A stretch of 24,000 nucleotides of DNA from an uncultured Alphaproteobacteria bacterium (GTDB taxonomy: Bacteria > Pseudomonadota > Alphaproteobacteria > Micropepsales > Micropepsaceae): positions 596 to 24,595 of the forward strand of contig CALMGU010000102.1 of the NCBI GenBank assembly GCA_937865685.1, written 5' to 3'. Shown here one piece after another: positions 3,416-21,097 of the stretch. Both the position numbers and the translations under genes were made by a program. Under the pieces are notes generated by a model. That model was not told the origin of the DNA. It saw only the letters and a list, made by a program, of their open reading frames with translations, and did not search any database. Every line of letters begins with the position of its first letter. Position 1 is the stretch's first letter.

Positions 3416-4657
3416 CTATTTGTTGTCGGGACGGGCCACGCCCTGGTCGAACTTGACGACCTTAGCCATGCCTTTGTTGATGAACTTCTGGATACGACGG
3501 CCTTCATAGGTTTCCGTCGTGAACAGATTGCCCTTGGAGTCGATGGCGATCGAGTGCACGCCATGGAATTCGCCGGCATGGTTGCCGCCGTCGCCGAAGG
3601 TGGTGACGGGCGTCAGGGTCTGGCGGTCGATCACGACCACCTGTTCATTCACGCCGTCCGCCATGAAGATGTACTTCTGCTGCGGATCCTTGGAGAAGGC
3701 GATATCCCAGACCGAACCGTCGGTCATGGTGTTGGTCTTGTAGTACATCTCCTTCACGAACTTGCCTTCGGGCGTGAAGACCTGCAGGCGGTCATTCACG
3801 CGGTCGCAGACATAGACCATCCGGTCGACCGACATGTCGGCGCAGTGAACCGGGTTGCGGAACTGCTGGGCGTTTTTATCGCCCGGCTTGTATGCCGGCA
3901 GCGGCGTATCATCCGGCTTGTTGCCATAAGCACCCCAGAAGCGCTTCATCTTGCCGGTGTCGGCGTCGATGACCGCAACGCGGTGGTTCAGGTAACCGTC
4001 GGCGACATAGGCTTCGTTGGCCTTGGCATCGACGAACACTTTGGCGACGCGGCCGAAGCTGTCCGGGTCGTTCGAATTGGCCGCGAAACCGGCCTGCGAG
4101 GCTTCCGCGTTGGCGTCGGCAGCGGCACCGGCTTTGCGGCGCGCGCCGGCCTTGCCGTACTGCATCAGGAACTTGCCGTCCTGCGTGAACTTCAGGATGT
4201 GCGAGTCCGGACCGCCATTGCCGCCGATCCACACATTGCCCTTATGGTCCACGAAGATGCCGTGGTTGGATTCCGGCCAGTCATAACCCTGGCCCGGGCC
4301 GCCCCAGGCGTGAAGCAGATTGCCCGCTTCGTCGAATTCCAGAACCGGCGGCGCCGCCTGGCAGCACTCGCCAAGGCCGCGCTGCAGCTGATTGGTGGTG
4401 CGGTCCACGGTGTTGGCGCGATGCACCATCCAGATGTGATCATTGTTGTCGACCCACACGCCGATCGCCATGCCCATCACCCAGTGATTGGGAAGCGGCT
4501 TCGGCCAGAAAGGATCGACTTCGAATTTCGGCGCGGTCGCGCCCACCTGCGCAACGGCTTTACTTTGGAACGCGACTTGCGAGATGCCCAGCGCGCCGAG
4601 CAACACGGCGAAACTTGCGCCGATCGCAAAATTCCGGGAACGAAGAATATTTTTCAT
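3416..4657 (-). CDS. secreted NHL-repeat six-bladed beta-propeller protein (peptidyl-alpha-hydroxyglycine amidating lyase-like)
   Basis: N-terminal signal peptide. Repeated blade-like segments (HGIFVDHKGNVWIG, AYVADGYLNHRVAVIDADTGK, VYVCDRVNDRLQVFTPEGKF, IFMADGVNEQVVVIDR, HSIAIDSKGNLFTTETYEGRRIQKF). Strong RBS GGAGGA upstream of the ATG. Confidence 0.65.
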   Translation of the reverse strand: MKNILRSRNFAIGASFAVLLGALGISQVAFQSKAVAQVGATAPKFEVDPFWPKPLPNHWVMGMAIGVWVDNNDHIWMVHRANTVDRTTNQLQRGLGECCQAAPPVLEFDEAGNLLHAWGGPGQGYDWPESNHGIFVDHKGNVWIGGNGGPDSHILKFTQDGKFLMQYGKAGARRKAGAAADANAEASQAGFAANSNDPDSFGRVAKVFVDAKANEAYVADGYLNHRVAVIDADTGKMKRFWGAYGNKPDDTPLPAYKPGDKNAQQFRNPVHCADMSVDRMVYVCDRVNDRLQVFTPEGKFVKEMYYKTNTMTDGSVWDIAFSKDPQQKYIFMADGVNEQVVVIDRQTLTPVTTFGDGGNHAGEFHGVHSIAIDSKGNLFTTETYEGRRIQKFINKGMAKVVKFDQGVARPDNK

Positions 4658-4783: not shown

Positions 4784-5833
4784 TTACGGCTGAATTCTTG
4801 TCAGAATTGTATCGATTTCTATGCTGCGCGGCGCGGCCAAGCCGCCATATTTGGCGTCGATATTCTTGACCGCCTTTTGGGCATCGGCGCGGTTGCCGCT
4901 GGCGATCAGGGCATCCGCCTTGGCCAATTCGCCGGCAATTCCGGTTTCGATGGCGGCACGGCAAGCGGCCATCCGGTCCGGGTCCGGCCGCTCAGGCTCC
5001 AGCAGAGCCTGAAGCGCCCGCGACAGGATGGCAGGCGGCGCGACATCATGACCGGCGAAGGGCATGCGGATGCTCGCCACATCAGAGACGCACCAGTCCT
5101 GCATCGCGCGCTTGCTGCGCATCTCCGATTCGACATTGGCGGCATCATGGTCGCCGGTCACATAGAGAAGCCGCGTCCCGGTCTGAAACTGCCGGAACAG
5201 GGACGCGGAGGGCAGCGGCTCGGTGATGGTGCCGATCACGTCGCTGCCCGAGTTCAGCAAGGCGCCATGAAAAAGATCGGGATAGGCCAAGGCCAGGCGC
5301 AGTGCCATGCGCGCGCCGCCCGACATGCCGCCGACATAGACTTGCGCGGAATCGATCGGATATTGCGCCATCACATTCTGCGCCGCGATCAGGGCCAGGG
5401 GCTCGCGGCGGCTGATAATGTCTTCCTCATTGCCCGATCTGGCGGCCGTCACGAAAATCATCCCGAACTGGTCCAGCACCGGACCCCAGCCCTGGGGCAA
5501 TTGCGCCTTCTGCCAAGGCGGGACGAACACCATCAGGCGATAGCCCTGGGGCGGCCTGGTCGCCGGCACATAGACAAGGAATTTCTCTGCCGCCAGGTCG
5601 ACCGAAGTTTCGCCAATGGTTTTTCCCTTTTGCGCAAGGTCGCGCCGGATACCGGCGAGGGTCAGGGGTGTGAAAACCCGGCCGAGAAGCTCCGAATTGC
5701 GGGCCAGCGCCGGATAGCTGGAAAAAGTCACATCTTCGCGCAGTCCGGAAGCCGGCGGGCTTTCCTGCGCCATGGCGAGGCCGCCACAGGCCGCTCCTAT
5801 CACTGCAATTGCGAGAAAACGGATGCGCACCAT
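4784..5833 (-). CDS. secreted alpha/beta-hydrolase fold esterase (PHB-depolymerase/LpqC-like family)
   Basis: Signal peptide FLAIAVIGAACGGLAMA. Nucleophile elbow GGMSGGARMA (G-x-S-x-G). A later GDHD and AGHD supply candidate Asp/His residues. RBS GAGGGGA upstream of the ATG. Confidence 0.6.
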   Translation of the reverse strand: MVRIRFLAIAVIGAACGGLAMAQESPPASGLREDVTFSSYPALARNSELLGRVFTPLTLAGIRRDLAQKGKTIGETSVDLAAEKFLVYVPATRPPQGYRLMVFVPPWQKAQLPQGWGPVLDQFGMIFVTAARSGNEEDIISRREPLALIAAQNVMAQYPIDSAQVYVGGMSGGARMALRLALAYPDLFHGALLNSGSDVIGTITEPLPSASLFRQFQTGTRLLYVTGDHDAANVESEMRSKRAMQDWCVSDVASIRMPFAGHDVAPPAILSRALQALLEPERPDPDRMAACRAAIETGIAGELAKADALIASGNRADAQKAVKNIDAKYGGLAAPRSIEIDTILTRIQP

Positions 5834-5949
5834 AATCCCCTCGCCGAAAGATTACCGGACATGCAGGGGATTTGCCTGTCCCCGGGCGCGTTGCCGTCAT
5901 GCATGAAAAATGGGCCGCTTTGGATTTCGCCCGCAAAGGCGGGCGCGGC

Positions 5950-5978
5950 TTGCCAAGCGGGGGCCGCTCAAGTATCTC
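5950..5978 (+). promoter_or_regulatory. candidate promoter of tRNA-Ser
   Basis: TTGCCA (5950-5955), a 17-nt spacer, then TATCTC (5973-5978). This places the start about 7 nt upstream of the mature tRNA 5' end. Weak match only. Confidence 0.3.
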
Positions 5979-5985
5979 CGCCGGC

Positions 5986-6075
5986 GGACAGGTGGTCGAG
6001 TGGTCGATGGCACCGCACTCGAAATGCGGCGAGCCTGCAAGGGCTCCGTGGGTTCGAATCCCACCCTGTCCGCCA
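5986..6075 (+). tRNA. tRNA-Ser (anticodon CGA)
   Basis: Acceptor stem GGACAGG / CCTGTCC, discriminator G and encoded CCA. Anticodon stem CCGCA / TGCGG with loop CTCGAAA. Long variable arm and T-loop GGTTCGAATCC. Collinear with canonical bacterial tRNA-Ser, 90 nt. Confidence 0.93.
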
Positions 6076-6096
6076 GCCCCTTCGGGGGCTTTTTTA
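6076..6096 (+). terminator. rho-independent terminator of tRNA-Ser
   Basis: GCCCC-TTCG-GGGGC hairpin (UUCG tetraloop) followed directly by TTTTTTAT. Confidence 0.9.
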
Positions 6097-6223
6097 TTGC
6101 CTGATCCACCGCGCTCCGTTGCTCCACGCATTAACTTACTTTGTATGTTTTCGTTGTAAACTGTTCCAATTCTGCTAAAAGATGACGCTCAGGGAAATTG
6201 CTTAGGCCCTGGGGGCGCACGTC

Positions 6224-6484
6224 ATGTCTGAAGGTCAGACACCATCCACTGCCATGCGGGTATTCACGGTCGAGTGGGATCCGATGCAGAAGAAATTTAT
6301 TGCCCGGAATGATCTGTGTGAACCGCTCGGCATTACGGCGGATCGGGCCAATGCCATCGGCATTGCAATCCGCAGCGCCAACAATGCGGCGCGAGCAGGA
6401 AGCTTCATTGCCGTGAAAGTGCTGCTCCAGAGCGGCAAGTATCGCACCGAATACATCACCCAGCCGGTGCCCGACCGCCGCTGA
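6224..6484 (+). CDS. hypothetical small protein (86 aa), orphan ORF next to tRNA-Ser
   Basis: Only a plausible ORF in a lower-GC stretch. Third-codon positions are visibly less GC-biased than in neighbouring genes. No motif recognised with confidence. A possible sigma70-like promoter lies upstream: TTGTAA (6154-6159), 16-nt spacer, TAAAAG (6176-6181). Confidence 0.4.
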   Translation: MSEGQTPSTAMRVFTVEWDPMQKKFIARNDLCEPLGITADRANAIGIAIRSANNAARAGSFIAVKVLLQSGKYRTEYITQPVPDRR

Positions 6485-6665
6485 GCGCGGTCTACGCGCA
6501 AAATGCCAATCCGTGCGCCGCACCATGCCGGTGTTTGCAGCGAATGCCGGGTTTCGGCGACATCTTCGGGATAATTCGCTTGTGCGTCTGGTGGAGAATT
6601 CCCACTATCCGCCACGTTGTTTGACTGCGCCGTTCGGCTGGCGATGTCGAAGGGGATATCTGGGG

Positions 6666-7190
6666 ATGAGCACCAACCAGCTTCTGGCCGCGATGGATGA
6701 GGTGCTCGAGCAGGGCGAGGTCCTGCTGATGGGGTTGAGCGACGCTCAATATGCCGATGCGGATGGTTCGCGGACCTCTGTCGGCGCGCATTACCGCCAC
6801 AGCCTGGAACACTTCAAGCTGCTGCTGGAGACAGTGAACGGGCCCGAAATCGATTACGACCGGCGCGAACGGGATGCCGAACTGGAGCAGGAACGGCTTT
6901 TCGCGCTCCAAGTGACGCGGGATTTCCGCCATGCCGCCCGGTTTCTCTCCACCCTCAATCCCGACCGGCCGATCCAGGCGCGCACCAAGATTTCCTATGC
7001 CGCGTCCGGGGCCTGTTCGGCGCCTTCGACCGTCGGCCGCGAGATCATGTTTGCGGTGTCCCACGCCATTCATCATTACGCGCTGATCGGCATGATCTGC
7101 GACCTGCGCGCACTGCCCGTGCCGCCGGATTTCGGCGTCGCGCCGTCCACCATCGAATATCAAAAGACCATCGCGCGCAGATCGGCATGA
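6666..7190 (+). CDS. DinB-family (DinB_2-like) four-helix-bundle metalloprotein
   Basis: His-containing motifs GAHYRHSLEHF and VSHAIHHYALI fit the DinB His triad. RBS AAGGGGA precedes the ATG at 6666. The track start at 6513 adds an Arg-rich extension. The stop overlaps the next start (ATGA at 7187-7190). Confidence 0.6.
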   Translation: MSTNQLLAAMDEVLEQGEVLLMGLSDAQYADADGSRTSVGAHYRHSLEHFKLLLETVNGPEIDYDRRERDAELEQERLFALQVTRDFRHAARFLSTLNPDRPIQARTKISYAASGACSAPSTVGREIMFAVSHAIHHYALIGMICDLRALPVPPDFGVAPSTIEYQKTIARRSA

Positions 7191-8806
7191 CCATGCTCGA
7201 CCTCACCTGGGCCAAGGCGGCGTCGCTGTTTTTCCTCACTTTCTTTTCCGAGGACGCGGCGACCTTGGGCGGGGCTGCACTCAGCGCGGCCGGGCAGCTG
7301 GCGATGCCGTTCGGCCTGGCTGCGTGTTTTCTGGGAATCTGGCTGGGGGATCTGGGGCTTTATGCGCTGGCGCGCTATTTCGGCCGTCCCTTTCTCGGCC
7401 GCGCCTGGGTGAAGCGCCGGGTCAATGAAGACCGGCTGGCGAAAAGCGAAGCCTGGTGGAAGAAGCGGGGGCTGCTGGTGCTGCTGGTGGCTCGTTTCGT
7501 TCCGGGTCTGCGCCTCCCCACTTATTTGATTGCCGGCACCTTGGCGGTTCCCTTCCTGTCCTTTGCGGCGGTGACGGCCTTGATGGGGCTGGTGTGGGTG
7601 CCGCTGGTGTTCACCCTGGTCTGGGCTGCGGGCACCCAGGCCGTGGCCTGGTATGCGGCGGCCAAAGGCACGCTGATCGTCACGGCGGTGATTGTTCTGG
7701 TTCTTGCGGGCCTGCCGCTTCTGTTCCGCGAACGGGTCCGCGCCTGGCTCCGCTCGCCGGCAACGCAGCGTTGGCTGCAATGGGAATTCTGGCCGGCGAA
7801 CCTCTTCTATATTCCCATCGGGCTGAATTATGCGCGCCTGGCGATCAAATATCGCGGCCTTAACCTGCCCACCATCGCCAATCCCGGCATGCTCACCGGC
7901 GGCATTGTCGGGGAGTCGAAAGACGAGATTCTTCGCGACCTGTTCCGCACCTCGCCCGCTTTCACCGCTCGCGCCGGTTTGATCGCGTGTGGACCGCTGG
8001 ACCAGCGGATGGCGCAGTTCCAGCGTCTTTGCACGGAGCATGGCCTCAGTCTGCCGGTGGTGCTGAAGCCCAATATCGCCCAGCGCGGCAGCGGCTTTAA
8101 GCTGGTGCGCGTCGCGACCGATGCCCGCGATTATCTGGAACAAGTGTCCGGCGACGTACTGGTGCAGGAATATGCGGCGGGGCCCTGCGAGGTAGGGATT
8201 TTCTATTACCGCTTTCCGCATGAGGAGCGGGGGCGCATCTTTGCGATCACCGAAAAGATCTTTCCCTCGGTCACGGGTGATGGCCGACGCACGGTGGAAC
8301 AGCTGATCCTGGATGACAGCCGGGCAGCGATCATGGCCCGCACCTACCTGCATCGCCACCGCGCCATCCGTGGCAAGGTGCTGGCCGCGGGCGAGCGTCT
8401 CAAGCTGGTGGAAGCGGGCAATCACTGCCAGGGCTGCATCTTCCGCGACGGGATGCATCTGTGGAGCCCCGAGCTGGAAGCGCGCATCGACCAGATCTCG
8501 CGCCAGGTGCCCGACTTTTTCATTGGCCGCTACGACGTTCGATATGCCGAGGATGGCGACATCCTGGCAGGTGAGAATTTCAAGATTCTGGAGCTGAACG
8601 GCGCGGCCTCTGAAGCCACCAGCATCTATGACAGCCGTAATACCATCTTCCAGGCTTATGCCACCCTGTTCCGGCAATGGGATCTGGTCTTCGCCATCGG
8701 AGCGGCCAATCGCAAGCTGGGACATCGCCCCGCGACCGTGAGCCTCTTGCGGGACGAATGGAAGAAGTACCAGCAGCTTAGCGCCTGCTATCCCATGGCC
8801 GACTGA
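7187..8806 (+). CDS. fusion protein: N-terminal DedA/VTT (SNARE-associated) membrane domain plus C-terminal ATP-grasp carboxylate-amine ligase domain
   Basis: Residues 1 to about 190 are polytopic with the DedA-type motif LVARFVPGLRLPTYLIAG. The C-terminal half has ATP-grasp signatures VVLKPNIAQRGSGFKLV, VLVQEYAAGPCEVGIFYY and FKILELNGAASEATS (E-x-N Mg site). Confidence 0.7.
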   Translation: MTMLDLTWAKAASLFFLTFFSEDAATLGGAALSAAGQLAMPFGLAACFLGIWLGDLGLYALARYFGRPFLGRAWVKRRVNEDRLAKSEAWWKKRGLLVLLVARFVPGLRLPTYLIAGTLAVPFLSFAAVTALMGLVWVPLVFTLVWAAGTQAVAWYAAAKGTLIVTAVIVLVLAGLPLLFRERVRAWLRSPATQRWLQWEFWPANLFYIPIGLNYARLAIKYRGLNLPTIANPGMLTGGIVGESKDEILRDLFRTSPAFTARAGLIACGPLDQRMAQFQRLCTEHGLSLPVVLKPNIAQRGSGFKLVRVATDARDYLEQVSGDVLVQEYAAGPCEVGIFYYRFPHEERGRIFAITEKIFPSVTGDGRRTVEQLILDDSRAAIMARTYLHRHRAIRGKVLAAGERLKLVEAGNHCQGCIFRDGMHLWSPELEARIDQISRQVPDFFIGRYDVRYAEDGDILAGENFKILELNGAASEATSIYDSRNTIFQAYATLFRQWDLVFAIGAANRKLGHRPATVSLLRDEWKKYQQLSACYPMAD

Positions 8807-8819
8807 TCCGATCCATCTC

Positions 8820-9539
8820 ATGTGCACCGTTTCGTTTCTGCCGACACGCCAAGGATTCATGCTGGCGATGAATCGCGACGAACAAGTCTCGCGGCCTCGT
8901 GCCCTGGCGCCGGGCCGCCGCTGGACCGGCATGCGCGCATCGCTTTTTCCTAGCGAGGCGGGCGGCGGCACCTGGATCGGCGCCAGCGATGCGGGGCTCT
9001 CTCTCGCCCTGGTCAACTGGTATGCCAAGCCGCAGCGCGACCGCGCTTTGTGCGTCAGCCGGGGGATCATCATTCCGCATCTCTTGGCGGCCGAAAATCT
9101 GGCGGAGGTTGCCGCCATGTTCGCCGATCTGCCCCTGGCCAAGATCAATCCATTCCGGTTGATCGCGGCATCCTTGAAAGAGCGGCGCTTGTGCGAATGG
9201 CGCTGGGACGGCAAGCGCCTGACTTGCAGCCGGTTCGGGTGGAAGCGCCGGCACTGGTTCTCGTCCGGCTATGACGAAGCGCTCGCGAACAAAAAGCGCG
9301 CCGCGGTGGTGCGGGACATCGCCAAGCCGGCGCCCGCAAGATTGCGCAAATTGCATCAATCCCATCTGCCGGACCAAGGGCCTTTTTCCATCTGCATGCA
9401 TCGCAAGGATGCCAAGACAGTCAGCTATACGGAGATCGTGGCGACGAAATCCGGTGCGGCAATGCGCTATGCCGCTGGATCGCCTTGCACCAAAAAACCG
9501 GGAACGCCCCGCCTGCTGTCATTCGCAAGCGGGGCGTAA
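8820..9539 (+). CDS. NRDE-family protein (TANGO2-like, predicted Ntn-hydrolase-type fold)
   Basis: Begins MCTVSFL with Cys directly after the initiator Met. Contains the eponymous motif LAMNRDE. Lies 13 nt after the ATP-grasp gene on the same strand. Confidence 0.7.
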   Translation: MCTVSFLPTRQGFMLAMNRDEQVSRPRALAPGRRWTGMRASLFPSEAGGGTWIGASDAGLSLALVNWYAKPQRDRALCVSRGIIIPHLLAAENLAEVAAMFADLPLAKINPFRLIAASLKERRLCEWRWDGKRLTCSRFGWKRRHWFSSGYDEALANKKRAAVVRDIAKPAPARLRKLHQSHLPDQGPFSICMHRKDAKTVSYTEIVATKSGAAMRYAAGSPCTKKPGTPRLLSFASGA

Positions 9540-9542
9540 GAA

Positions 9543-10817
9543 TTAGCCGCGATAGAAGACGCGCCAGATTTTTCCCGTCTGGCTGTCGGTGATGTAGAGC
9601 GAGCCGTCCGGCCCAACCGCCACGCCATCGGGGCGTGCGGGATAGTCATTCTGGGTTTTGATCGGGGCGGAGCCGGCGAATTTGTCCGCGAAGACTTCGA
9701 ATTTGCCAGAAGCTTTTCCGTCATTGCCGATGGGCTGGAACACCACCGCGCCCGGGCGCTGTTCGCCGGAGCGGTTCCAGGAGCCGTGAAACGCGATGAA
9801 GGCGCCGCCGCGATAAGAAGCGGGGAACTGCTTGCCGTCATAGAATTTCACATCGACGGGCGCCCAATGCGCGGGAAAGCTGGCCGTCGGCAAGGTGAAT
9901 TTGGCGCAGCGCGCCGCTTCCCTGCCGTCGCCGCCATATTCGGGGCTGAGCAGAAGCTTCTGCTGGCGATAGTCGAAATAGCAATAGGGCCAGCCGAAAT
10001 CCGCGCCCTGTTCGGCGCGATACATCACTTCGGCGGGACCGTCATTGTTATCTTCGGCGGTGAAATGTTCCGGATAGAGCAGATCGATCTGGTCGCGGTT
10101 GTTCATCACTGTGTAGATCGCGCCATGGGCCCAGGCCACATCGGGCTCTTGGCGCAAACCGGTGACGATGCGGCTGCCGTCTTCCTGTTTCTGGCTCAGC
10201 TTGGCGGCGCTGAATTTCCAGATGCCGCCATGCTTCTCCAGGAGCGGGCAGGGATCCTGGCCGGGCGAATCCTTCAACCGGTCGCGCGCCTGGCAGGCGT
10301 TGGATGGGCTTCCCACATTGACGTAGAAATTGCCTTTGTCGTCGAAGGCGATGCCTTTGTCGGCATGCTCGCGGGCGCTGTCGAAACCGGAAACGACGAT
10401 TTCCGGCTGGCCTTGCGGCACCAACTGGCCTGGCGTCATCTTATAACGAACCACCTGGGTCGGCTGGGCGACATACAGATAGCCGTCATGGAGCGCGATG
10501 CCGGTGGCGCTGCCATTGTCGGCAAGGCCATTGCCGAATTTCTGCTGCACGTCGAAATGGCCGTCGCCCTTGGAATCGTGCAGCGCCACCAAGCCGCCGG
10601 GCTTGCCGCCGCTGGCGCGCAAGGCGACATAAAGGTCGCCATTGGGCGCGGCCACCGCATGGCGCGCATAGCCCAGATTTTCGGCAGCCACCATGGCGCA
10701 GAAGCCCCTGGGCAACGTGATGCCGCCATTGTCCGGCGCGCAAGTCGGTGCCGCCGAAGCGGGCGCCGCCGCCATCGCGGACAATCCCAAAATCGAAACC
10801 GTCAGCTTCAACATCAT
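9543..10817 (-). CDS. secreted PQQ-dependent sugar (sorbosone/glucose) dehydrogenase-family beta-propeller
   Basis: Signal peptide LGLSAMAAAPASA. Family-like segments HAVAAPNGDLYVA, GIAFDDKGNFYVNVGSPSNAC, GADFGWPYCY and PDGVAVGPDGSLYITDSQTGKIWRVFY. RBS GGGAGA upstream. Confidence 0.7.
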   Translation of the reverse strand: MMLKLTVSILGLSAMAAAPASAAPTCAPDNGGITLPRGFCAMVAAENLGYARHAVAAPNGDLYVALRASGGKPGGLVALHDSKGDGHFDVQQKFGNGLADNGSATGIALHDGYLYVAQPTQVVRYKMTPGQLVPQGQPEIVVSGFDSAREHADKGIAFDDKGNFYVNVGSPSNACQARDRLKDSPGQDPCPLLEKHGGIWKFSAAKLSQKQEDGSRIVTGLRQEPDVAWAHGAIYTVMNNRDQIDLLYPEHFTAEDNNDGPAEVMYRAEQGADFGWPYCYFDYRQQKLLLSPEYGGDGREAARCAKFTLPTASFPAHWAPVDVKFYDGKQFPASYRGGAFIAFHGSWNRSGEQRPGAVVFQPIGNDGKASGKFEVFADKFAGSAPIKTQNDYPARPDGVAVGPDGSLYITDSQTGKIWRVFYRG

Positions 10818-10980: not shown

Positions 10981-11883
10981 CTATTGCAGCGGCACCGCAT
11001 AGGCGGCGAATACGCCGGGGTCCTGACCCTTGAGCGGTTCGCGCCGGTAGTTGAATTTGGATTCCAGTTCCCAGGCGGTGTTTCCCACCACCGTCACTGC
11101 CACCGGCACATTCAGGCCCTGATTCAAGACTGTGACGGTGGCCTTGTCGCCGTCCAGAACGATGCGGTCGAGACGGCCCTGGCCTTCGGCCAGAAGAATG
11201 TCGCCATTGGGTGCCAGCCGCATGCCATCCGGATTCTTCAGGGGCTGGCTGGTGGCGATCTCCGTGACTTTCACGTTTTCTCCACTCCCCTCGACGCGGA
11301 GCAGGCGCGCGCTGCTATAGGTGTTCACATAGAGTTTGCCGTCACGGGTGAAGACCAGCCCGTCGATCGATTTGAGATCCGGTCCCGACGCGAATTCCGT
11401 CAATTGCCTGGCGCCGGGCACCAGCCGCAAGATGCGGCTTCCGGATGTATCGGCGACCATGGCCGCCCCGTCGGGCGCGATGGCAATATCGTTGCACACG
11501 CCGCCGCCAGGGAAGGGATATTTGGCGCGGAATTTCCCGCCCGGCAGATCGAACGCCATCAGCGACGTATCGATATGCGCCGGATCGTCGGTGGAACAGA
11601 CCCAGAGCGTGCGGCCGTCGGCCAGGACGCCGAGGACCGAATGCATTCCTTCCGTGCCGGCCGGGATGAAGGAAGAGGCTTTGTCCTGTCCCGCCGCGGC
11701 TTTGTAGATCCCGCCTTTGGCGAGGCTGCCGATATAGACGTTGCCTGCCGCATCCGAACTCAGGCTTTCGGGAAAGACGCCGGTGTCATCGATGACGATG
11801 CGGTCGGCGGCCAAAGCGGGCGTGGTAACCGCCGCCAGGGTGCAGGCGAATAGCATGATGGGCAGATTGCGAAAGGCGATCAT
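10981..11883 (-). CDS. secreted SMP-30/gluconolactonase/LRE-like (strictosidine-synthase-like) beta-propeller protein
   Basis: Start chosen at MIAFRNLPIMLFACTLAAVTTPALA (signal peptide) with a GGAGG RBS. Repeated blade segments (AAGNVYIGS, NDIAIAPDGAAMVADTSGSRILR, IDGLVFTRDGKLYVNT, PDGMRLAPNGDILLAE). The track start at 12030 adds 49 aa with no support. Confidence 0.6.
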   Translation of the reverse strand: MIAFRNLPIMLFACTLAAVTTPALAADRIVIDDTGVFPESLSSDAAGNVYIGSLAKGGIYKAAAGQDKASSFIPAGTEGMHSVLGVLADGRTLWVCSTDDPAHIDTSLMAFDLPGGKFRAKYPFPGGGVCNDIAIAPDGAAMVADTSGSRILRLVPGARQLTEFASGPDLKSIDGLVFTRDGKLYVNTYSSARLLRVEGSGENVKVTEIATSQPLKNPDGMRLAPNGDILLAEGQGRLDRIVLDGDKATVTVLNQGLNVPVAVTVVGNTAWELESKFNYRREPLKGQDPGVFAAYAVPLQ

Positions 11884-11903
11884 GAAACCTCCGGGTCCGA
11901 ATA

Positions 11904-11919
11904 ATATGTATATACATAT
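11904..11919. promoter_or_regulatory. perfect 16-bp AT-only palindrome ATATGTATATACATAT, candidate operator in a divergent promoter region
   Basis: Read directly and checked as its own reverse complement. Lies 21 nt upstream of the ATG at 11883 (minus gene) and 130 nt upstream of the dipZ ATG, inside otherwise GC-rich DNA. Confidence 0.5.
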
Positions 11920-12048
11920 GTTCTTGCCGATTTTCCATATCGGTTCGCGCGTCATTGCCACCGCTCCGCGCGGAAAACGGGTTGCCGCAATTGCGCCGCT
12001 CAGCGGACGCTGCGAAGATGCCCGCTCCAAGACGCGGACGAATTGTCA

Positions 12049-13767
12049 ATGACCCTGATCCTATTGGCCTATCTGGGTGGCGTCCTCACCATCGTCAGTC
12101 CTTGCATCCTGCCGGTGCTGCCATTCGTGTTCGCGCGGGGCGGCCGTCCATTCCTGACGGGTACATTGCCGCTTCTGGCGGGCATGGTCGTGATGTTTGC
12201 CGCGGTGGCGAGTTTGGCGGCGGTTGGCGGCGGCTGGGCGGTGAGCGCCAATCAGTATGGCCGCATCGCCGCCATGGTCTTGCTCACGCTCTTCGCTGTC
12301 ACGCTGTTGTCGCGCACCCTGGCGGATACTCTCACCCGCCCGCTGGTGGCGCTGGGCAACCGGCTGTCCGGCGAGGCGGGCGCGGGATCCGGCATCGGCG
12401 CGTCTTTTCTTTTGGGCATCGCCACCGGATTGCTGTGGGCGCCTTGCGCCGGGCCGATCCTGGGTTTGGTGCTGACGGGGGCTGCGATCAGCGGCGCCAG
12501 CGTGCAAACCACATTGTTGTTGCTGGCTTATGCCGCCGGTGCGGCGACATCGCTGGCCTTGGCGTTGCTGGTGGGCGGGCGGCTGTTCGCGGCGATGAAG
12601 CGATCTTTGGGCGCGGGCGAATGGGTGCGCCGCGCGCTGGGTGTGCTGGTGCTGGCGGGCGTGGCGGCCATCGCCTTCGGACTGGATACCGGTTTTCTGA
12701 CGCGTGTGTCGCTGGCCAGTACCTCGCGTTTCGAGCAGGGGCTGGTGGACAAATTTTTGCCCGCCAAGCCGGTCAAAGCCGTTGCGGTGGCGGGCAGCAA
12801 TCTTCCCGTTGAAGGTGTGATTCCGGAATTGACCGGCGCCACCGGCTGGCTGAACACGCCGCCGCTGACCCGCGATGGGCTGGCGGGCAAAGTGGTGATG
12901 GTGGATTTCTGGACATACTCCTGCATCAACTGCCTGCGCGCCTTGCCCTATATCCGCGCCTGGGCCGCGAAATATAAAGATCATGGGCTGGTGGTGCTGG
13001 GCGTGCATGCGCCCGAATTTGCCTTCGAACGGGATCCCGCCAATGTGAAGAAGGCTGTGGCGGACCTGGGCGTCACCTATCCCGTGGCACTGGATTCCAA
13101 ACTCGCCATCTGGCAGGCCTTCAACAACCAATATTGGCCCGCGCATTATTTCATCGACGCGATGGGGCGCATCCGCGCCCATCATTTCGGCGAAGGTGAA
13201 TATGACAAGTCCGAGCGCATCATCCAGACCCTGCTCAAGGAAGCCGGCTACAAGAATGTGCCTGGCGGCATTGTCGATCCGGACGCCGAAGGAGCGCTTG
13301 CCGCCGCCGACGAAAACAACATGCAATCGCCGGAGACCTATCTGGGCTATGGGAGGGGAACCGGTTTCGCTTCCAACACGCCGCAACCGGACACAATTGC
13401 AACTTATACGACGCCTTACCCCTTAGGCCCCAACCAGTGGGGGCTTACCGGCCGCTGGACCATTGGCGAGGAAAAATCGGTGTCGGCTGCCGCCGGAACC
13501 AGGATCACTTTCTATTTCCATGCCCGTGATCTGCATCTGGTGCTGGGGCCCGGCGCCGGCAACAAGCCCGTGCGCTTCAAAGTGACATTGGATGGTCAGC
13601 CGCCGGGTACGGCGCATGGCATGGATACGGATGAGGCAGGCAATGGCACCGTAACGGGCCAGCGCCTTTACCAACTCATTCGCCAGCAGGGCATGATCGG
13701 CAATCGCACATTCGGCATCGAATTCCTGGATCCAGGCGTTGAGGCTTATGCCTTCACATTCGGATGA
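12049..13767 (+). CDS. dipZ: DipZ-type cytochrome c biogenesis/thiol-disulfide reductant transfer protein (CcdA-like membrane domain + thioredoxin-like domain + C-terminal DipZ domain)
   Basis: CcdA/DsbD-type motifs SPCILPVLP and WAPCAGPILG in the membrane part. Periplasmic thioredoxin-like domain with FWTYSCINCLRALP (C-x-x-C). About 170-aa C-terminal domain. The ATG at 12049 is preferred over the TTG at 12043. Confidence 0.8.
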   Translation: MTLILLAYLGGVLTIVSPCILPVLPFVFARGGRPFLTGTLPLLAGMVVMFAAVASLAAVGGGWAVSANQYGRIAAMVLLTLFAVTLLSRTLADTLTRPLVALGNRLSGEAGAGSGIGASFLLGIATGLLWAPCAGPILGLVLTGAAISGASVQTTLLLLAYAAGAATSLALALLVGGRLFAAMKRSLGAGEWVRRALGVLVLAGVAAIAFGLDTGFLTRVSLASTSRFEQGLVDKFLPAKPVKAVAVAGSNLPVEGVIPELTGATGWLNTPPLTRDGLAGKVVMVDFWTYSCINCLRALPYIRAWAAKYKDHGLVVLGVHAPEFAFERDPANVKKAVADLGVTYPVALDSKLAIWQAFNNQYWPAHYFIDAMGRIRAHHFGEGEYDKSERIIQTLLKEAGYKNVPGGIVDPDAEGALAAADENNMQSPETYLGYGRGTGFASNTPQPDTIATYTTPYPLGPNQWGLTGRWTIGEEKSVSAAAGTRITFYFHARDLHLVLGPGAGNKPVRFKVTLDGQPPGTAHGMDTDEAGNGTVTGQRLYQLIRQQGMIGNRTFGIEFLDPGVEAYAFTFG

Positions 13768-13861
13768 GATGACACACATTTGGCAACCATCGCGCCGGGC
13801 TTTTGCCTTAAAGGGGAGCCTGGCGTAGGCTTGTCGCATCGATCTATCGGCGGATACCGGT

Positions 13862-14914
13862 ATGAAGCGAAAACCTCTTTACAGCCGCGCCTCCAGGCGG
13901 CGCTCCGGTTCGTCGATCCGCGACGAAGGAGCGCCTGTTGCCTGGTCCTTTGAAGAGAACCAGGGATCTTCGCTCGCCGTCGAAATCTGGCGCAAATCCA
14001 AAGCCTTTGTGGCGCGGCATGATCGCAGCGTGCCGGCCGCGGCGGCGGTGTTGATCGCTGTTGGTCTGTTCGGCGCCTGGCAATGGTTCCATCCCGGTCC
14101 GACCGCGCTGACCCAATGGGATATCGACAATGCCGTTAAATATACGCTGAGCAACACGCCACCTGGCCCCGCCGAAACCACGGTGGCCGCCGCCACGGTG
14201 GGACCATCGGTGGTGCGGGTGGATGGGTTCCTGTCGCCCGAACATGCGGCGCAGCAGGCCAAGCTGGAAGCGGCAGAAGCCAAAAAGAATCATCTGAAGA
14301 TTCAGCCCATGCCGCCGCCCAAATCCTCGGACGGCAAGGATGCGGATAAAGATAAAGCCAAAGACGAAAGTCCCGACTCCACCGGCACAGGTGTCGTGAT
14401 CGACGACAAGGGCGACATTCTCACCAATCTGCATGTGATCCATTCCACCGATCGCTGGGTGGTGACGTTTTTCGACGGCAGCAAGTCGGAAGCGACCGTG
14501 GTGAATGTGCAGCCTGAAAACGATCTGGCGGTGATCCGCACCAAGACCCAGCCCGATGATCTGAAGCCCGCCACTTTGGCGTCGACCGCCAATCTCTTTC
14601 CCGGCGACACGGTGGTGGCGGTGGGCTTTCCGTTCGGCATCGGGCCCTCGGTCTCCTCCGGCGTGGTGGCGGGCCTGAAGCGCGAATTCGACGATCCGTC
14701 CGAGAAGGACAAACCCACCCTCACCAATCTGATCCAGTTCACCGCGCCCGTGAATCCGGGCAATTCCGGCGGGCCGCTGGTCAATCGCGACGGCGAAGTC
14801 GTGGGCATCGTGACGGCGATCTACAATCCCACCGGCCAGCGCGTGTTCGCGGGCATGGCTTTCGCCGTGCCGATCGAGAATGCCGCCAAGGCGGTGGGCA
14901 ACAATCCTCTTTGA
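13862..14914 (+). CDS. membrane-anchored S1C (HtrA/DegP-like) trypsin-fold serine protease without PDZ domain
   Basis: Catalytic triad contexts TNLHVIH (His), ENDLAVIR (Asp) and GNSGGPLVN (Ser). N-terminal basic tail followed by one TM helix (VPAAAAVLIAVGLFGAWQWF). The start codon is uncertain. Confidence 0.75.
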   Translation: MKRKPLYSRASRRRSGSSIRDEGAPVAWSFEENQGSSLAVEIWRKSKAFVARHDRSVPAAAAVLIAVGLFGAWQWFHPGPTALTQWDIDNAVKYTLSNTPPGPAETTVAAATVGPSVVRVDGFLSPEHAAQQAKLEAAEAKKNHLKIQPMPPPKSSDGKDADKDKAKDESPDSTGTGVVIDDKGDILTNLHVIHSTDRWVVTFFDGSKSEATVVNVQPENDLAVIRTKTQPDDLKPATLASTANLFPGDTVVAVGFPFGIGPSVSSGVVAGLKREFDDPSEKDKPTLTNLIQFTAPVNPGNSGGPLVNRDGEVVGIVTAIYNPTGQRVFAGMAFAVPIENAAKAVGNNPL

Positions 14915-14929
14915 CAAAAGGGTTTCGGC

Positions 14930-15925
14930 ATGGCCAGCGGCGCGCATGAAGGGTTGGAGCATCTTCTTTATGAAGTGAAGAAGGTGGTGGTCGGCCAGGA
15001 TCATTTCCTGGAGCGGGTGCTGGTCGCGCTTCTGGCGGGCGGGCATCTTCTGGTGGAAGGCGTGCCCGGCCTGGCCAAGACCCTGACGGTCTCGACCCTG
15101 GCGCGGGCGATGCAGGGCAGTTTCAAGCGCATCCAGTTCACGCCCGACCTTGTTCCCGCCGATCTGGTCGGCACCCGCGTCTATAACCAGAAGAGCGGCG
15201 AGTTCAGCACCGTACTGGGGCCTGTCTTCGCCAATCTGGTGCTGGCCGACGAAATCAACCGCGCTCCCGCCAAGGTGCAGAGCGCGCTTCTGGAAGTGAT
15301 GCAGGAACGCCAGGTCACCATCGCGGGCGAAAGCCATCCCGTGCCCAAGCCATTCGTGGTGATGGCGACGCAGAATCCGATCGAGACCGAAGGCACATAT
15401 GCCTTGCCGGAAGCGCAGGTCGACCGCTTCATGATGAAGGTGCTGGTGGGTTATCCCAGCGAGGACGAGGAGTTCGTGATCGTCCAGCGCGTCACCGGCA
15501 TGGCCGCCGCTATCGGCGCGGTCACCACCACCGATGAATTGCTGGCGATGCAGGCGCAGGCCCGCAAGATCTATATCGATCCGGCCTTGGTCACCTATGC
15601 GGTGCGGCTGGTGGCGGCGACCCGCGATCCGGGCCGGGCAGGCCTGCATAGCCATTCGCGCTTCATCCTGTATGGAGCAAGCCCCCGCGCCACCATCGGC
15701 CTGATCGAGGCGGGACGGGCGCTGGCCTATCTGCGCGGCCGCGATTATGCGCTGCCCGCCGATGTGGTGGATGTGGCGGCCGATGTGCTGCGCCACCGGG
15801 TGGTGCCATCCTATGAAGCGCTGGCCGAAGGCGTCGGCGCCGACGATCTGGTGCGCGACATCATGCGGGCCGTGCCCGCGCCCGAAAAGGTTTTGGAGCG
15901 CCATGACCGCGCCGCGAACGCCTGA
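14930..15925 (+). CDS. MoxR-family AAA+ ATPase
   Basis: Walker A GVPGLAKT and Walker B VLADEINRA. ATQNPIETEGTYALPEAQVDRF is typical of MoxR/RavA-class ATPases. Lies 15 nt after the protease gene. Confidence 0.9.
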   Translation: MASGAHEGLEHLLYEVKKVVVGQDHFLERVLVALLAGGHLLVEGVPGLAKTLTVSTLARAMQGSFKRIQFTPDLVPADLVGTRVYNQKSGEFSTVLGPVFANLVLADEINRAPAKVQSALLEVMQERQVTIAGESHPVPKPFVVMATQNPIETEGTYALPEAQVDRFMMKVLVGYPSEDEEFVIVQRVTGMAAAIGAVTTTDELLAMQAQARKIYIDPALVTYAVRLVAATRDPGRAGLHSHSRFILYGASPRATIGLIEAGRALAYLRGRDYALPADVVDVAADVLRHRVVPSYEALAEGVGADDLVRDIMRAVPAPEKVLERHDRAANA

Positions 15926-16805
15926 CGCGGTTCTTCGCCGCCTCGACCTGAAGATTACCCGGCGGCTGGAGGGTTTGCTGCAGGGCGATCACCGCACCGC
16001 GTTTCGCGGCCAGGGCTTGGATTTCGCGGACTTGCGCGAATACCAATATCACGACGATGTGCGGCACATGGACTGGAACGTCACCGCGCGGCTTCAGATT
16101 CCCCATGTGCGCGAATTCCTGGAAGACCGGGAGATCACCGCCTGGTTCCTGCTCGATATGAGCCCATCGATCGATTTTCAGTCGGTGAGTGTCTCCAAGC
16201 GCACGGTGCTGTCCGAATTCACCACTCTGATGTGCCGGTTCCTTTCGGGCAAAGGCAATCGCGCGGGCGCTCTGTTGTTCACCGGCGGGGTGGAGCACAT
16301 GGTGCCGGCGCGGGGCGGACGGCGGCAATTTCTGGTGCTGCTGGACGCGCTCACCCGCTACCGGGCGCCGAAAAAAACGCAAGCGACGGACCTCAAGCGC
16401 GTATTGACCGACGCGGGCAAGATGATCCGCCGCCGTTCGCTGGTCTTTGTGGTGTCCGATTTCATCAGCGCTCCCGGTTGGGAAAAGCCGCTCGGCCAGC
16501 TTGCCAGCCGTCACGACGTGATCGCGGTCCGTCTCACCGATCCGCTGGAAGTGCGCTTGCCCGATCTGGGCCTGATCACCTTCCAGGACGCGGAGAGCGG
16601 CGACCAGCTTTTCGTCGATACCCATGACAAGGGCTTTCGCGCCCGCTTCGTTGCCGCCGCCGAAAGACGGAACGAGGAATTGATGACCGCGTTCACGGCA
16701 GCCGGTGTGGATGCCTTGGAGCTGTCCACCGAAGACGATGTCGCGGACGCGGTGCTGCGTTTCGCCGACATGCGCCGCCTGCGTTTCGCAAAGAAGACCG
16801 CATGA
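15903..16805 (+). CDS. DUF58 domain protein (MoxR-associated)
   Basis: FRGQGLDFADLREYQYHDDVRHMDWNVTAR and FLLDMSPS motifs typical of DUF58. The ATG at 15903 overlaps the MoxR 3' end by 23 nt. The longer track ORF from 15747 is an out-of-frame overlap with MoxR. Confidence 0.85.
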   Translation: MTAPRTPDAVLRRLDLKITRRLEGLLQGDHRTAFRGQGLDFADLREYQYHDDVRHMDWNVTARLQIPHVREFLEDREITAWFLLDMSPSIDFQSVSVSKRTVLSEFTTLMCRFLSGKGNRAGALLFTGGVEHMVPARGGRRQFLVLLDALTRYRAPKKTQATDLKRVLTDAGKMIRRRSLVFVVSDFISAPGWEKPLGQLASRHDVIAVRLTDPLEVRLPDLGLITFQDAESGDQLFVDTHDKGFRARFVAAAERRNEELMTAFTAAGVDALELSTEDDVADAVLRFADMRRLRFAKKTA

Positions 16806-17938
16806 AGGAATGGGCGATCAAGGCTTGGGGTTTGGTCCCGCATATCGGCTTTCTCTGGCCGATGTTTCTGTGGCTGCTCATCGCCGTTCCGCTTGCGGTG
16901 ACTCTGTACGTGCTGTTCCTGCGCCGCCGCAAGAAGTCGGCGCTGCGCTATGCCAATATGGCGATGGTCAAGAGCGCCGCGGGGGCGATGGGCTGGCGGC
17001 GCCATGTTCCGCCCGCGCTGATGCTGGCCGCACTCACCTTGTTGCTGCTGGCGATGGCGCGGCCCACCGCGCTGGTCAGCCTGCCATCCTCCCGCGCCGT
17101 GGTGATGCTGGCAATGGACGTGTCGGGCAGCATGCGCGCCGCCGATGTGAAGCCGTCGCGCATCGAAGCGGCCCAGGCCGCCGCCAAGCAATATATCAAG
17201 GACCAGCCCAAGGACGTTCAGATCGGCATCGTCGCCTTCGCCGCCACCGCGCTGACGGTCCAGAATCCCACCACCGACCGGCTGGCGCTGAACGCGGCGG
17301 TCGACCGGTTCGAGTTGCAGCGCGGCACGGCGGTGGGCAGCGGCATCCTGGTTTCGCTCTCCACCATTTTCCCCAAGGAAGATTTTCCGATCAGCAATTT
17401 CGCCGGCGGCGGTTTTGGCAACGGCAATGGCGGTTACGGCTTTGGCGGCGGCGACCGCTTCAACCGCTTTGGCGGGCGCGCATTAGGTGATCGGGGCAAG
17501 GAGCCTGCGCCCAAGAAGAAGCATGTGCCGGTCGAGCCGGGTTCCTACAAGAATGCGGTGGTGATCCTGCTTACCGATGGTCAGACCAATGCGGGCTATG
17601 ATCCGGTGGAAGCGGCGCGGATCGCGTCGGAATATGGCGTGCGCGTTTATACGGTGGGCTTCGGCACCACCAAGGGCAATGTGGTGGGCTTTGGCGGCTT
17701 TTCGATGCGCGCCCAGCTGGACGAAACGGCGCTGAAAAAGATCGCGGACATGACGCGGGGGCGCTATTTCCACGCCGCCAGCGCCGACGACCTGAAGCAG
17801 GTCTATAGCGTCCTTTCCAAGCAACTGGTGATGGAGACCAAGGAGATGGAAATCACCTCCTTCTTCGCGGGGCTGGCCGCCCTTCTGATGCTGGCTTCCG
17901 CCAGCCTGTCGCTAATCTGGTTCGGCCGGGTGCTCTGA
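16802..17938 (+). CDS. BatA-like VWA-domain membrane protein with an internal Gly/Phe-rich insertion
   Basis: N-terminal TM (FLWPMFLWLLIAVPLAV). MIDAS residues in MDVSGSM, RGTAVGSG and ILLTDGQTN. C-terminal TM. The start overlaps the DUF58 stop (ATGA). Confidence 0.85.
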   Translation: MKEWAIKAWGLVPHIGFLWPMFLWLLIAVPLAVTLYVLFLRRRKKSALRYANMAMVKSAAGAMGWRRHVPPALMLAALTLLLLAMARPTALVSLPSSRAVVMLAMDVSGSMRAADVKPSRIEAAQAAAKQYIKDQPKDVQIGIVAFAATALTVQNPTTDRLALNAAVDRFELQRGTAVGSGILVSLSTIFPKEDFPISNFAGGGFGNGNGGYGFGGGDRFNRFGGRALGDRGKEPAPKKKHVPVEPGSYKNAVVILLTDGQTNAGYDPVEAARIASEYGVRVYTVGFGTTKGNVVGFGGFSMRAQLDETALKKIADMTRGRYFHAASADDLKQVYSVLSKQLVMETKEMEITSFFAGLAALLMLASASLSLIWFGRVL

Positions 17939-20114: not shown

Positions 20115-21026
20115 CTAAGTTCCCGCCGGGCACTGCGCCTTGTCCATCAGCCAGTCCCGGAACAGAGGCATGGCGGAAGACTGCGCCCGGCTTATCAAGC
20201 GCGTGAGCCAATAACATCCCAGATCCGCTTCGATTGCGAAAGGCTGGATCAGCAGGCCCGCTTCCAGCTCGCGCCGGAACATGGCCACCGGCACTAGCGC
20301 CACCCCTTCGCCCCGCAAAGCCGCCTGCACCATGATCCAGGACGAATCGAACAGCGGTCCCCGCGCCGCGATATTCGGCACGCCGGCTTTTTCCAGCCAT
20401 TGCGGCCAGTCGGATGCACGGTAGGAGCGCAGCAGGGGAAATTCCGCGAGATCGGGCGGCATACGCAGGCGCTTCGCGGTTTGCGGCGAACAGACCGCGG
20501 AGCATGGCGCATCCATGACCTTTTCAGAATGGATGCCGTGCCAGGCGCCGTCGCCGAAGCGGATGGCATAGTCCAGGCTTTCGCCCGCCAGATCGACTTT
20601 GTTGTTGTTGGTGAGAAGCCTGAGATCGATCGCGGGGTTGCGGGCCTGGAAATCCGGCAGCCTCTCCAGCAGCCAGCCCACCGCGAACGTGCCCACCGCG
20701 CCGACGGTCAGCGCTTCCTTCAAGCGTCCGCCCTCGAACTGGCCCAGCGCACGCGACAAGCGCTCGAATGTTTCGCTTACTGGCACCATCAGGGCGCGGC
20801 CTTCATCGGTGAGGACCAGTCCGCGCGGCGTGCGGCGGAAAAGCTCCAGGCCCAGCTTTTCCTCCAGCCCTTTGACCTGGTGGCTGATCGCCGCCTGGGT
20901 CACCGACAATTCCAGCCCGGCGCGGGTGAAGGACAGGTGCCGTGCCGCCGCCTCGAAGGCACGCAGCGCACTGAGCGAAACGGAGGAGATGTTGATTGGG
21001 TTATTAGAAAAACTTGTGGCAGACAC
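20115..21026 (-). CDS. LysR-family transcriptional regulator (AmpR/PenR-like, divergent from the beta-lactamase gene)
   Basis: [41 protein letters not shown], then a typical LysR substrate-binding domain. A GTG start at 21026 (AAGGA RBS) gives 303 aa. The alternative GTG at 21083 would leave only 14 nt before the divergent bla ATG, so it is less likely. Confidence 0.8.
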
Positions 21027-21097
21027 GAGACAATGTCCTTTGCGCGCGAAATCCGGCTTGCGGCATGGTGGCAACCTAAGCACAGAGAGGCGTGGTC
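21027..21097. promoter_or_regulatory. divergent LysR / beta-lactamase control region
   Basis: A 71-nt interval between divergent starts, the usual location of LTTR operators. It contains the dyad TTGC-N9-GCAA (cTTGCggcatggtgGCAAc). No exact T-N11-A box could be assigned with confidence. Confidence 0.35.

Follow-up and report, generated by a model that had tools for sequence, protein, structure and literature searches.

A DedA/VTT and ATP-grasp fusion protein in a conserved bacterial gene cassette, with a proposed role in aminolipid modification

Introduction

The ATP-grasp enzymes that most resemble the protein described here are the cyanophycin synthetases CphA1 and CphA2 (that is, their G domain) and GshAB (also termed GshF), and the membrane proteins that it most resembles are the COG0586 DedA proteins (UptA and YghB/YqjA). 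The protein, VTT::ATP-grasp, joins a domain of each kind in a single chain of 539 amino acids (aa), encoded from an ATG start at positions 7187-8806 (+ strand) of a 24,000-nucleotide stretch (hereafter, the window) of contig CALMGU010000102.1 from an uncultured alphaproteobacterium of the Micropepsaceae (GenBank assembly GCA_937865685.1). With CphA and GshAB, which are the best profile and fold matches to its C-terminal half, it shares the ATP-binding Lys, the Q-E-Y hinge, the Mg2+ ligands R-x-D and E-x-N, the G-D-G-x-x-T lid insert and, by prediction, a chemistry in which an amine attacks the acyl-phosphate of a carboxylate. It differs from them in sequence (15-21% identity), in lacking the Mur-like M, N and gamma-glutamylcysteine ligase domains, in having a membrane-proximal helix where they have a pre-ATP-grasp N-domain and in being fused to a polytopic membrane domain. 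Of the G, M and N domains that together define a cyanophycin synthetase, the G region alone aligns, and the protein ends after the ATP-grasp domain. With the COG0586 DedA proteins it shares a VTT match, a predicted pattern of re-entrant segments and helices, acidic residues and an R-x5-R pair, yet its VTT domain is shorter (~185 aa) and scores far under the cut-off of the UptA equivalog model NF052604 in NCBIfam (44.4 versus 250 bits).

Two further systems offer parallels in design. MprF is an aminoacyl-phosphatidylglycerol synthase fused to a flippase, and the fusion protein may follow the same plan (that is, a cytoplasmic lipid head-group enzyme and a lipid-translocating domain in one polypeptide), but the two are not homologous: MprF uses aminoacyl-tRNA, a GNAT-like synthase and a flippase that is not of the DedA type. 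Glutathionylspermidine synthetase/amidase combines an ATP-grasp amide synthetase with a Cys-nucleophile amidase that acts on the same bond, a logic that seems to be echoed by the pairing of ATP-grasp with a TANGO2-like Cys-N-terminal-nucleophile (Cys-Ntn) hydrolase that we report below. However, the amidase of that enzyme has a CHAP rather than an Ntn fold, its substrates are soluble and it has no membrane domain. A parallel in chemistry may be found in cerilipin formation by Gluconobacter/Gluconacetobacter cerinus (PMC12971839), an ATP-dependent amide ligation on an aminolipid head-group carboxyl, which is the reaction that might be expected of an ATP-grasp protein encoded in an ols operon; the family is not tied here to G. 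cerinus or taurine.

Here, we find that the fusion gene is the central member of a translationally coupled cassette (DinB-like, VTT::ATP-grasp, TANGO2-like), which is the true functional unit and wider than the single open reading frame (ORF), and that its relatives recur in aminolipid synthase operons. On the basis of these sequence comparisons, we propose that the protein couples a flippase domain to an amidoligase that faces the cytoplasm and modifies the head group of an ornithine-type lipid, a reading to which we assign a probability of roughly one half.

Architecture of the fusion protein

Residues 1-185 (7187..7741, +) constitute a DedA/VTT membrane domain with two predicted re-entrant segments and three predicted membrane helices, as delimited by Pfam, the helices of an AlphaFold2 (AF2) model, invariant residues and the distribution of charges. 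The Pfam family VTT_dom (PF09335) matches residues 33-144 (E = 7.8e-16, 59.1 bits versus a cut-off of 33.9), and the best partial matches of this half in NCBIfam are UptA and the COG0586-type DedA model. The motif LVARFVPGLRLPTYLIAG, quoted as DedA-like in a preliminary description of the locus, is located in this half, in which the following residues are invariant (here and below, unless stated otherwise, across 40 homologues): E22, D23, D55, R103, P106, G107, R109, L110, P111 and T112. The acidic pair E22/D23 falls in the first predicted re-entrant segment and the pair R103-x5-R109 in the second; acidic residues of this kind and an R-x5-R pair have been tied in the literature to the COG0586 DedA subfamily. 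Secondary structure and hydrophobicity agree with this predicted layout, for which no solved DedA structure is available as a comparison.

A basic linker and a conserved interfacial helix (residues 186-222, 7742..7852, +), defined by invariant columns (R195, W199-E-F-W-P203, F207-Y208, P210 and Y215) and by the AF2 model, lead into the ATP-grasp ligase domain (residues 223-539 and the stop codon, 7853..8806, +), which was identified through profile searches of the PDB, Foldseek and its invariant residues. This part has no Pfam match at E < 0.01, its weak match to cyanophycin synthetase in NCBIfam is unusable, and a search of the PDB with the single fusion sequence returned no match. Detection was achieved with hmmsearch against the PDB using a profile (A2) built from 19 relatives, which recovered the CphA2 G domain (7ta5, E = 4.1e-8), CphA1 (9.1e-8), GshAB (1.5e-5) and Ddl (9.6e-5), followed by carbamoyl-phosphate synthetase and RimK; relatives also exceed the Pfam cut-off for RimK (24 versus 21 bits). 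The AF2 model, computed from the alignment of 40 homologues (mean predicted local distance difference test (pLDDT) 83.3, predicted template modelling score (pTM) 0.63), has CphA1, GshAB, CphA2 and many Ddl structures as its top Foldseek matches (probability 1.00, E from 3e-8; for example, 7txv, 7wac, 3ln6 and 7ta5). The key residues of the domain are K245, K294, Q327-E-Y329, K357, G364-D-G366, R448-x-D450 and E469-x-N471; K294-P295, R300-G301-x-G303, Q327-x-Y329, R448-x-D450 and E469-x-N471 are invariant, and the columns of the ATP/Mg2+ site (K294, Q327/Y329, R448, D450, E469 and N471) are also invariant in 19 distant and 23 hydrolase-type relatives. Judged by these matches and residues, the C-terminal half is a divergent ATP-grasp domain, for which we propose an ATP-dependent carboxylate-amine (or thiol) ligation.

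The preliminary description had considered this domain complete, which holds for the motifs that it named but not for the canonical pre-ATP-grasp (Rossmann-like) N-terminal substrate domain, which is absent. The membrane domain is separated from the K245 motif by only ~50 residues, which form one helix and a loop, and the PDB alignments of profile A2 begin at approximately position 90 of the profile. In place of the missing domain are a hydrophobic/amphipathic helix (W199-E-F-W-P203...Y215; residues 204-221 in the AF2 model) and an invariant N232-P-G...G-E-S-K245 loop. The W-E-F-W-P helix is kept in all forms that lack VTT (19 such relatives aligned). As the pre-ATP-grasp domain varies across the ATP-grasp superfamily, its absence leaves membership intact.

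The protein ends in a P536-x-A-D539 tail (8792-8803), in which P536, A538 and D539 are invariant and the pLDDT is <50; distant relatives terminate in [YF]-P-x-[AS]-[DSE]. It could function in docking or as a self-substrate of the ligase.

More than 100 full-length homologues (51-95% identity) share the unbroken VTT::ATP-grasp architecture, the fusion is encoded whole in 80 species genomes or loci, no internal stops occur in the whole-genome matches, and the junction segment ranks among the best conserved parts of the protein, which together show that the fusion is no assembly artefact. With regard to topology, the loop formed by residues 63-96 carries, averaged over the 40 homologues, 8.8 K+R versus 2.9 D+E and the segment beyond the last membrane helix (residues 181-203) 5.1 versus 1.2, while the N-terminus and the turn at residues 149-152, both predicted to be periplasmic, have ~0 K+R. 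On the basis of this positive-inside pattern and of the helix pattern in the model, the ATP-grasp domain probably faces the cytoplasm. The preliminary account of one unbroken 539-aa fusion is upheld.

A conserved three-gene cassette

The gene directly upstream of the fusion encodes a DinB-like metalloprotein (6666..7190, +; 174 aa from the ATG at 6666), recognized by Pfam DinB_2 (E = 1e-5, 26.4 bits versus a cut-off of 24.8) and by six His residues that are invariant in 75 neighbours (H42, H45, H49, H133, H136 and H137). Its stop codon overlaps the start of the fusion gene as ATGA (7187-7190). Thirteen nucleotides (nt) after the fusion stop begins a TANGO2-like (NRDE) gene (8820..9539, +), whose product is a predicted Cys-Ntn hydrolase (Pfam TANGO2, E = 1.6e-10, 42 bits versus a cut-off of 22.6) with Met1-Cys2 and N18-R-D-E21 identical in 76/76 neighbours. 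In the crystal structure of human TANGO2 published in 2026, the residues equivalent to Cys2 and NRDE are assigned to the active site of a Cys-Ntn hydrolase, and the substrates proposed for it are fatty-acid derivatives (PMC13044924). Going by their conserved residues, both partner proteins look catalytically intact. Across 80 orthologous loci, the DinB-like gene is directly upstream of the fusion wherever there is enough room, and the TANGO2-like gene is downstream in ~75; these loci belong to Rhizomicrobium-like Alphaproteobacteria, many Verrucomicrobiota and a few Nitrospirota, Haliangiales (Myxococcota) and Acidobacteriota. A role in haem trafficking, as suggested for TANGO2 elsewhere (PMC10470608), was considered for the neighbour and set aside, as genes for haem or cytochrome maturation are not among the recurrent neighbours of the cassette.

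The upstream boundary of the cassette is marked by a tRNA-Ser(CGA) gene with a strong terminator-like hairpin (5986..6090, +; ARAGORN; terminator-like site at 6075-6090), which lies ~600 nt upstream and outside the cassette. Between the two is an 86-aa ORF with a sub-threshold CaiF/GrlA match (6224-6484). The distribution of the cassette is patchy: of 24 further genomes from the same genus, 3 carry the domain (E <= 1e-20), as do 25 of 300 that were sampled from the class as a whole. Given this patchiness within the genus, the tRNA-Ser(CGA) region could be an island insertion site.

Domain architectures and distribution of the family

The C-terminal domain was scanned against 1.84 billion representative proteins, which yielded 2766 clusters at E <= 1e-3, and architectures were determined for the best 150 representatives. 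VTT::ATP-grasp accounts for 79 of these, and a further 35 carry an extra region N-terminal to VTT, which is an alpha/beta hydrolase in those scanned; P0193 and P0223 extend this to TANGO2::hydrolase::VTT::ATP-grasp. In a few of the 150, a hydrolase is followed by ~170 unassigned residues and then ATP-grasp, a single one (P0252) is DinB::ATP-grasp, and 27 consist of ATP-grasp alone, some of them being fragments. The survey that the preliminary description had called for finds the combination of VTT and ATP-grasp to be widespread, with larger fusions to alpha/beta hydrolase, TANGO2 or DinB.

Genuine VTT-less forms are encoded in five loci (L088, L089, L175, L176 and L177), and no separate DedA gene was found beside the ATP-grasp gene in any of the five, all of which have room for one. 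On the question left by the preliminary description of whether the halves are ever split, ATP-grasp thus does occur without VTT, but not as an adjacent pair of DedA and ATP-grasp genes in those loci. One other candidate for a stand-alone form, P0126, was rejected, as its ORF runs open to the end of the contig and is probably a truncated fusion. Carriers of the subfamily to which the window's protein belongs are nearly all uncultured; for the stand-alone form, Kangiella and Solimonas are among the carriers in culture.

Because the C-terminal domain is invisible to Pfam, public annotation names these proteins only as 'DedA/VTT domain-containing'. In the literature searched, we found no published description that pairs DedA, VTT or SNARE-associated proteins with ATP-grasp, and none that links OlsB to these genes. 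A survey of DedA domain arrangements includes fusions with PAP2, rhodanese and pyridine-nucleotide disulphide oxidoreductase, and ATP-grasp is not among them. The fusion had been described as unusual: it is undescribed, but common in environmental bacteria, and ATP-grasp is a new addition to the catalytic domains fused to DedA.

Linkage to aminolipid synthase genes

Aminolipid synthase genes recur in the neighbourhoods of the sister subfamily that carries the N-terminal hydrolase. In L092, genes for an OlsB-like protein (PF13444), an OlsA-like protein (PF01553) and hydrolase::VTT::ATP-grasp overlap as one operon. For this subfamily, 80 metagenomic loci were collected, of which 38 have at least 3.2 kb of upstream sequence and were used for counts (the OlsB and OlsA calls being confirmed by Pfam PF13444 and PF01553). 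OlsB-like and OlsA-like genes are both upstream on the same strand in 25/38, a DinB-like gene is upstream in 26 and a TANGO2-like gene in 12, and at least one of the four is present upstream in 35. A typical order is olsB - olsA - DinB - TANGO2 - fusion. In the window protein's own subfamily, 9 of ~77 loci, which differ in arrangement and represent several phyla, have an OlsB-like gene no more than 5 kb away; with one or two OlsB-type genes per 3-6 Mb genome, we estimate chance proximity at well under 1%. The source genome itself has a single OlsB-type gene, on another contig.

The VTT-less forms point in the same direction. In L176 (5015-8593) and in L177 from Kangiella (4887-8420), genes for a VanZ-family protein, a DinB-like-sized protein and VTT-less ATP-grasp are followed by olsB and olsA; the DinB-like identity of the gene upstream of ATP-grasp was confirmed by a DinB profile in L176 only and judged by size in L177. 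In Solimonas soli (L175), a divergent gene for an OlsF-type synthase adjoins the ATP-grasp locus, in which the order is AraC, hydrolase, a 149-aa membrane protein, DinB, ATP-grasp, a YHS protein and DoxX. OlsF itself (VCA0646) is the last gene of a putative four-gene operon (PMC12186959). The preliminary description had suggested a ligase tethered to a membrane module that handles a lipid or carrier, with a substrate or product that is membrane-associated or exported; the presence of relatives in or beside olsB/olsA or olsF operons supports this view and narrows it to an aminolipid context.

As a separate observation, the VanZ-family membrane protein of L176 and L177 occupies the place that the DedA domain holds elsewhere.

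Proposed function

The reading that follows is inferred with regard to which substrate and nucleophile are used, in which direction the lipid moves and what the DinB-like and TANGO2-like proteins do. The fusion would be a bifunctional inner-membrane enzyme, in which the VTT half is a lipid flippase- or scramblase-type module and the basic linker and interfacial helix lead into a cytoplasmic ATP-grasp carboxylate-amine ligase. Because an N-terminal substrate domain of the usual kind is missing, the acceptor site of the ligase probably takes its complete form at the membrane surface. The ligase may activate the carboxylate of an aminolipid head group as an acyl-phosphate, the likeliest target being the free alpha-carboxyl of an ornithine-type acyloxyacyl lipid, and would join to it an amine (that is, taurine, an amino acid or ammonia). 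The VTT domain might then present the lipid to the ligase or move the modified lipid to the outer leaflet. The TANGO2-like Cys-Ntn hydrolase may cleave an amide in lipids of this class, whether to reverse the ligation or to remove an N-acyl group, which would fit the fatty-acid-derivative substrates proposed for human TANGO2, and the DinB-like metalloprotein may contribute a further metal-dependent step. ATP-dependent transfer of taurine to the carboxyl of ornithine lipids has been reported biochemically since the 1970s, with the gene unknown (PMC12971839); it is the combination of this report with ATP-grasp chemistry and the free alpha-carboxyl of ornithine lipids that leads us to propose amidation of the head-group carboxyl, and by analogy the ATP-grasp family is a candidate kin of the gene-less taurine:ornithine-lipid ligase.

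Several observations weigh against this proposal. There are no ols genes within the 24-kb window, and in the protein's own subfamily such genes occur within 5 kb in only ~12% of the loci and in no Rhizomicrobium-like locus; the aminolipid link of this particular protein therefore rests on homology to sister subfamilies. In COG0586 DedA proteins, the Arg pair that is conserved in the VTT half has been proposed to bind undecaprenyl phosphate through its phosphate, a group that ornithine lipids do not have. How the two domains are placed relative to each other is uncertain in the AF2 model, as reflected in its pTM. Finally, verrucomicrobial loci often add genes for DoxX-like proteins, AhpC/TSA-YHS redoxins and DUF1223 proteins beside the cassette, and these neighbours hint at a thiol or redox chemistry that the aminolipid model does not explain.

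A broader proposal is more tentative, and we regard it as possible rather than probable: DinB, VTT::ATP-grasp and TANGO2 may together form an undescribed system for lipid head-group remodelling, in which the ATP-grasp family would include the ornithine-lipid carboxyl ligase (of the cerilipin type) and the TANGO2-like protein would be the matching lipid amidase. The function of TANGO2 is disputed (haem trafficking versus a Cys-Ntn hydrolase acting on lipid or acyl-CoA), and its operon and fusion partnership with a membrane amide ligase beside aminolipid synthases predicts a substrate class for it. If true, the TANGO2 family, whose human member causes TANGO2 deficiency disorder, would for the first time have a defined class of biochemical substrate. 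The ATP-grasp family is also a concrete candidate for the ornithine-lipid head-group amidation gene that has been unknown since the 1970s (PMC12971839), and the fusion would join MprF, to which it is unrelated, as a second case of a single polypeptide that combines a lipid-modifying enzyme with a flippase.

Alternative readings

The DoxX-like, redoxin and DUF1223 neighbours could instead reflect a thiol or redox cassette, in which the ATP-grasp enzyme would make a small amide-linked thiol, the DinB-like protein would be a thiol S-transferase, the TANGO2-like amidase would process the conjugates and VTT would export or anchor. Characterized DinB-fold enzymes include the bacillithiol and mycothiol S-transferases, the ATP-grasp domain is close to GshAB among solved structures, and the cassette is directly preceded by genes for DoxX-like proteins in 54, AhpC/TSA (+YHS) redoxins in 40 and DUF1223 proteins in 20 of ~80 orthologous loci. 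A stand-alone CoaB-like DFP gene recurs in 6 orthologous loci. In L093 (1924-5714), moreover, DinB::ATP-grasp without VTT is followed by redoxin/YHS, DoxX-like and CoaBC-like flavoprotein/DFP genes; together with P0252 and the recurrence of DFP, this locus makes a link to pantetheine or cysteine chemistry possible, which is of interest given that TANGO2 has been tied to CoA metabolism. What such a cassette leaves unexplained is the repeated linkage to olsBA and olsF operons and the choice of a lipid scramblase-type domain over a solute exporter. The window itself, in addition, has no DoxX gene: searches with the DoxX, redoxin and DUF1223 neighbours as queries (tblastn) gave only chance-level matches to it. 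Its sole redoxin gene, for a 574-aa Redoxin/AhpC-TSA and Thioredoxin_10 protein (12043-13767, +; Pfam), is ~2.5-3 kb downstream of the cassette and separated from it by two convergent genes, which makes a link between them doubtful. We consider a thiol or redox function the main alternative but an unlikely one; it accounts for neighbours that amidation of an aminolipid does not explain.

A polyprenyl-phosphate substrate appears distinctly improbable. Under this alternative, VTT would handle undecaprenyl phosphate or a lipid-linked envelope precursor and ATP-grasp would add or amidate an amino acid (compare Ddl, or MurT/GatD acting on lipid II). It draws on the acidic residues and R-x5-R pair that the VTT half keeps in common with the COG0586 undecaprenyl-phosphate flippase subfamily, on UptA and the COG0586-type DedA as its best partial NCBIfam matches, and on the Ddl enzymes among the fold matches. 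The UptA score (44 versus 250 bits), however, does not make it an equivalog, and in ~170 loci no peptidoglycan, O-antigen or teichoic-acid gene recurs, the recurrent biosynthetic neighbours being aminolipid acyltransferases.

That the product is a soluble peptide or cyanophycin-like polymer, with the membrane domain merely anchoring the enzyme or exporting what it makes, seems to us very unlikely. The closest solved relatives are indeed cyanophycin synthetase G domains, which have the G-D-G-x-x-T lid motif in common with the fusion, and the invariant, flexible P-x-A-D tail could act as a primer or self-substrate; yet the fusion lacks both the Mur-like M domain and the N domain of those enzymes, genes for precursor peptides or peptidases do not recur, peptide export is not a known activity of DedA proteins, and the soluble substrate-binding N-domain has been exchanged for a membrane-proximal helix. 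Lastly, although the source genome is fragmented (184 contigs, 87% complete), there is next to no chance that an ordinary DedA gene and an ATP-grasp gene were merged by sequencing or assembly error, as the same unbroken architecture occurs in more than 100 homologues and 80 independent loci of several phyla and the junction segment is strongly conserved.

Other genes in the window and in related loci

The cassette is flanked by three beta-propeller-type genes with NHL, GSDH-like and SGL-like matches (3416-4657, 9543-10817 and 10981-12030, all on the - strand), of which at least one encodes a signal-peptide-like N-terminus; they do not recur in other loci. Further downstream is a MoxR AAA+/DUF58/BatA-VWA operon of the 'aerotolerance' type (14930-17938, +), and as the same MoxR/DUF58/BatA set lies downstream of the cassette in L004 and L005, this arrangement represents local synteny. 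A 686-aa ORF antisense to the MoxR gene (13844-15904, -) has no family match and is probably a spurious high-GC ORF. A gene for a LysR-family regulator (20115-21083, -) is divergent to a class A beta-lactamase-family gene (21092-21973, +; Beta-lactamase2, E = 2e-39), and the end of the window holds genes for an MlaD-domain protein and an ABC-transport auxiliary lipoprotein, which are parts of a lipid-trafficking ABC system (21970-23509, -). In related loci, a membrane protein with Ferric_reduct and Rieske matches is encoded near the cassette (L003, 5535-7334, -; L087, 3013-4065, +), and the ORF cluster that holds the L003 copy covers 15 loci.

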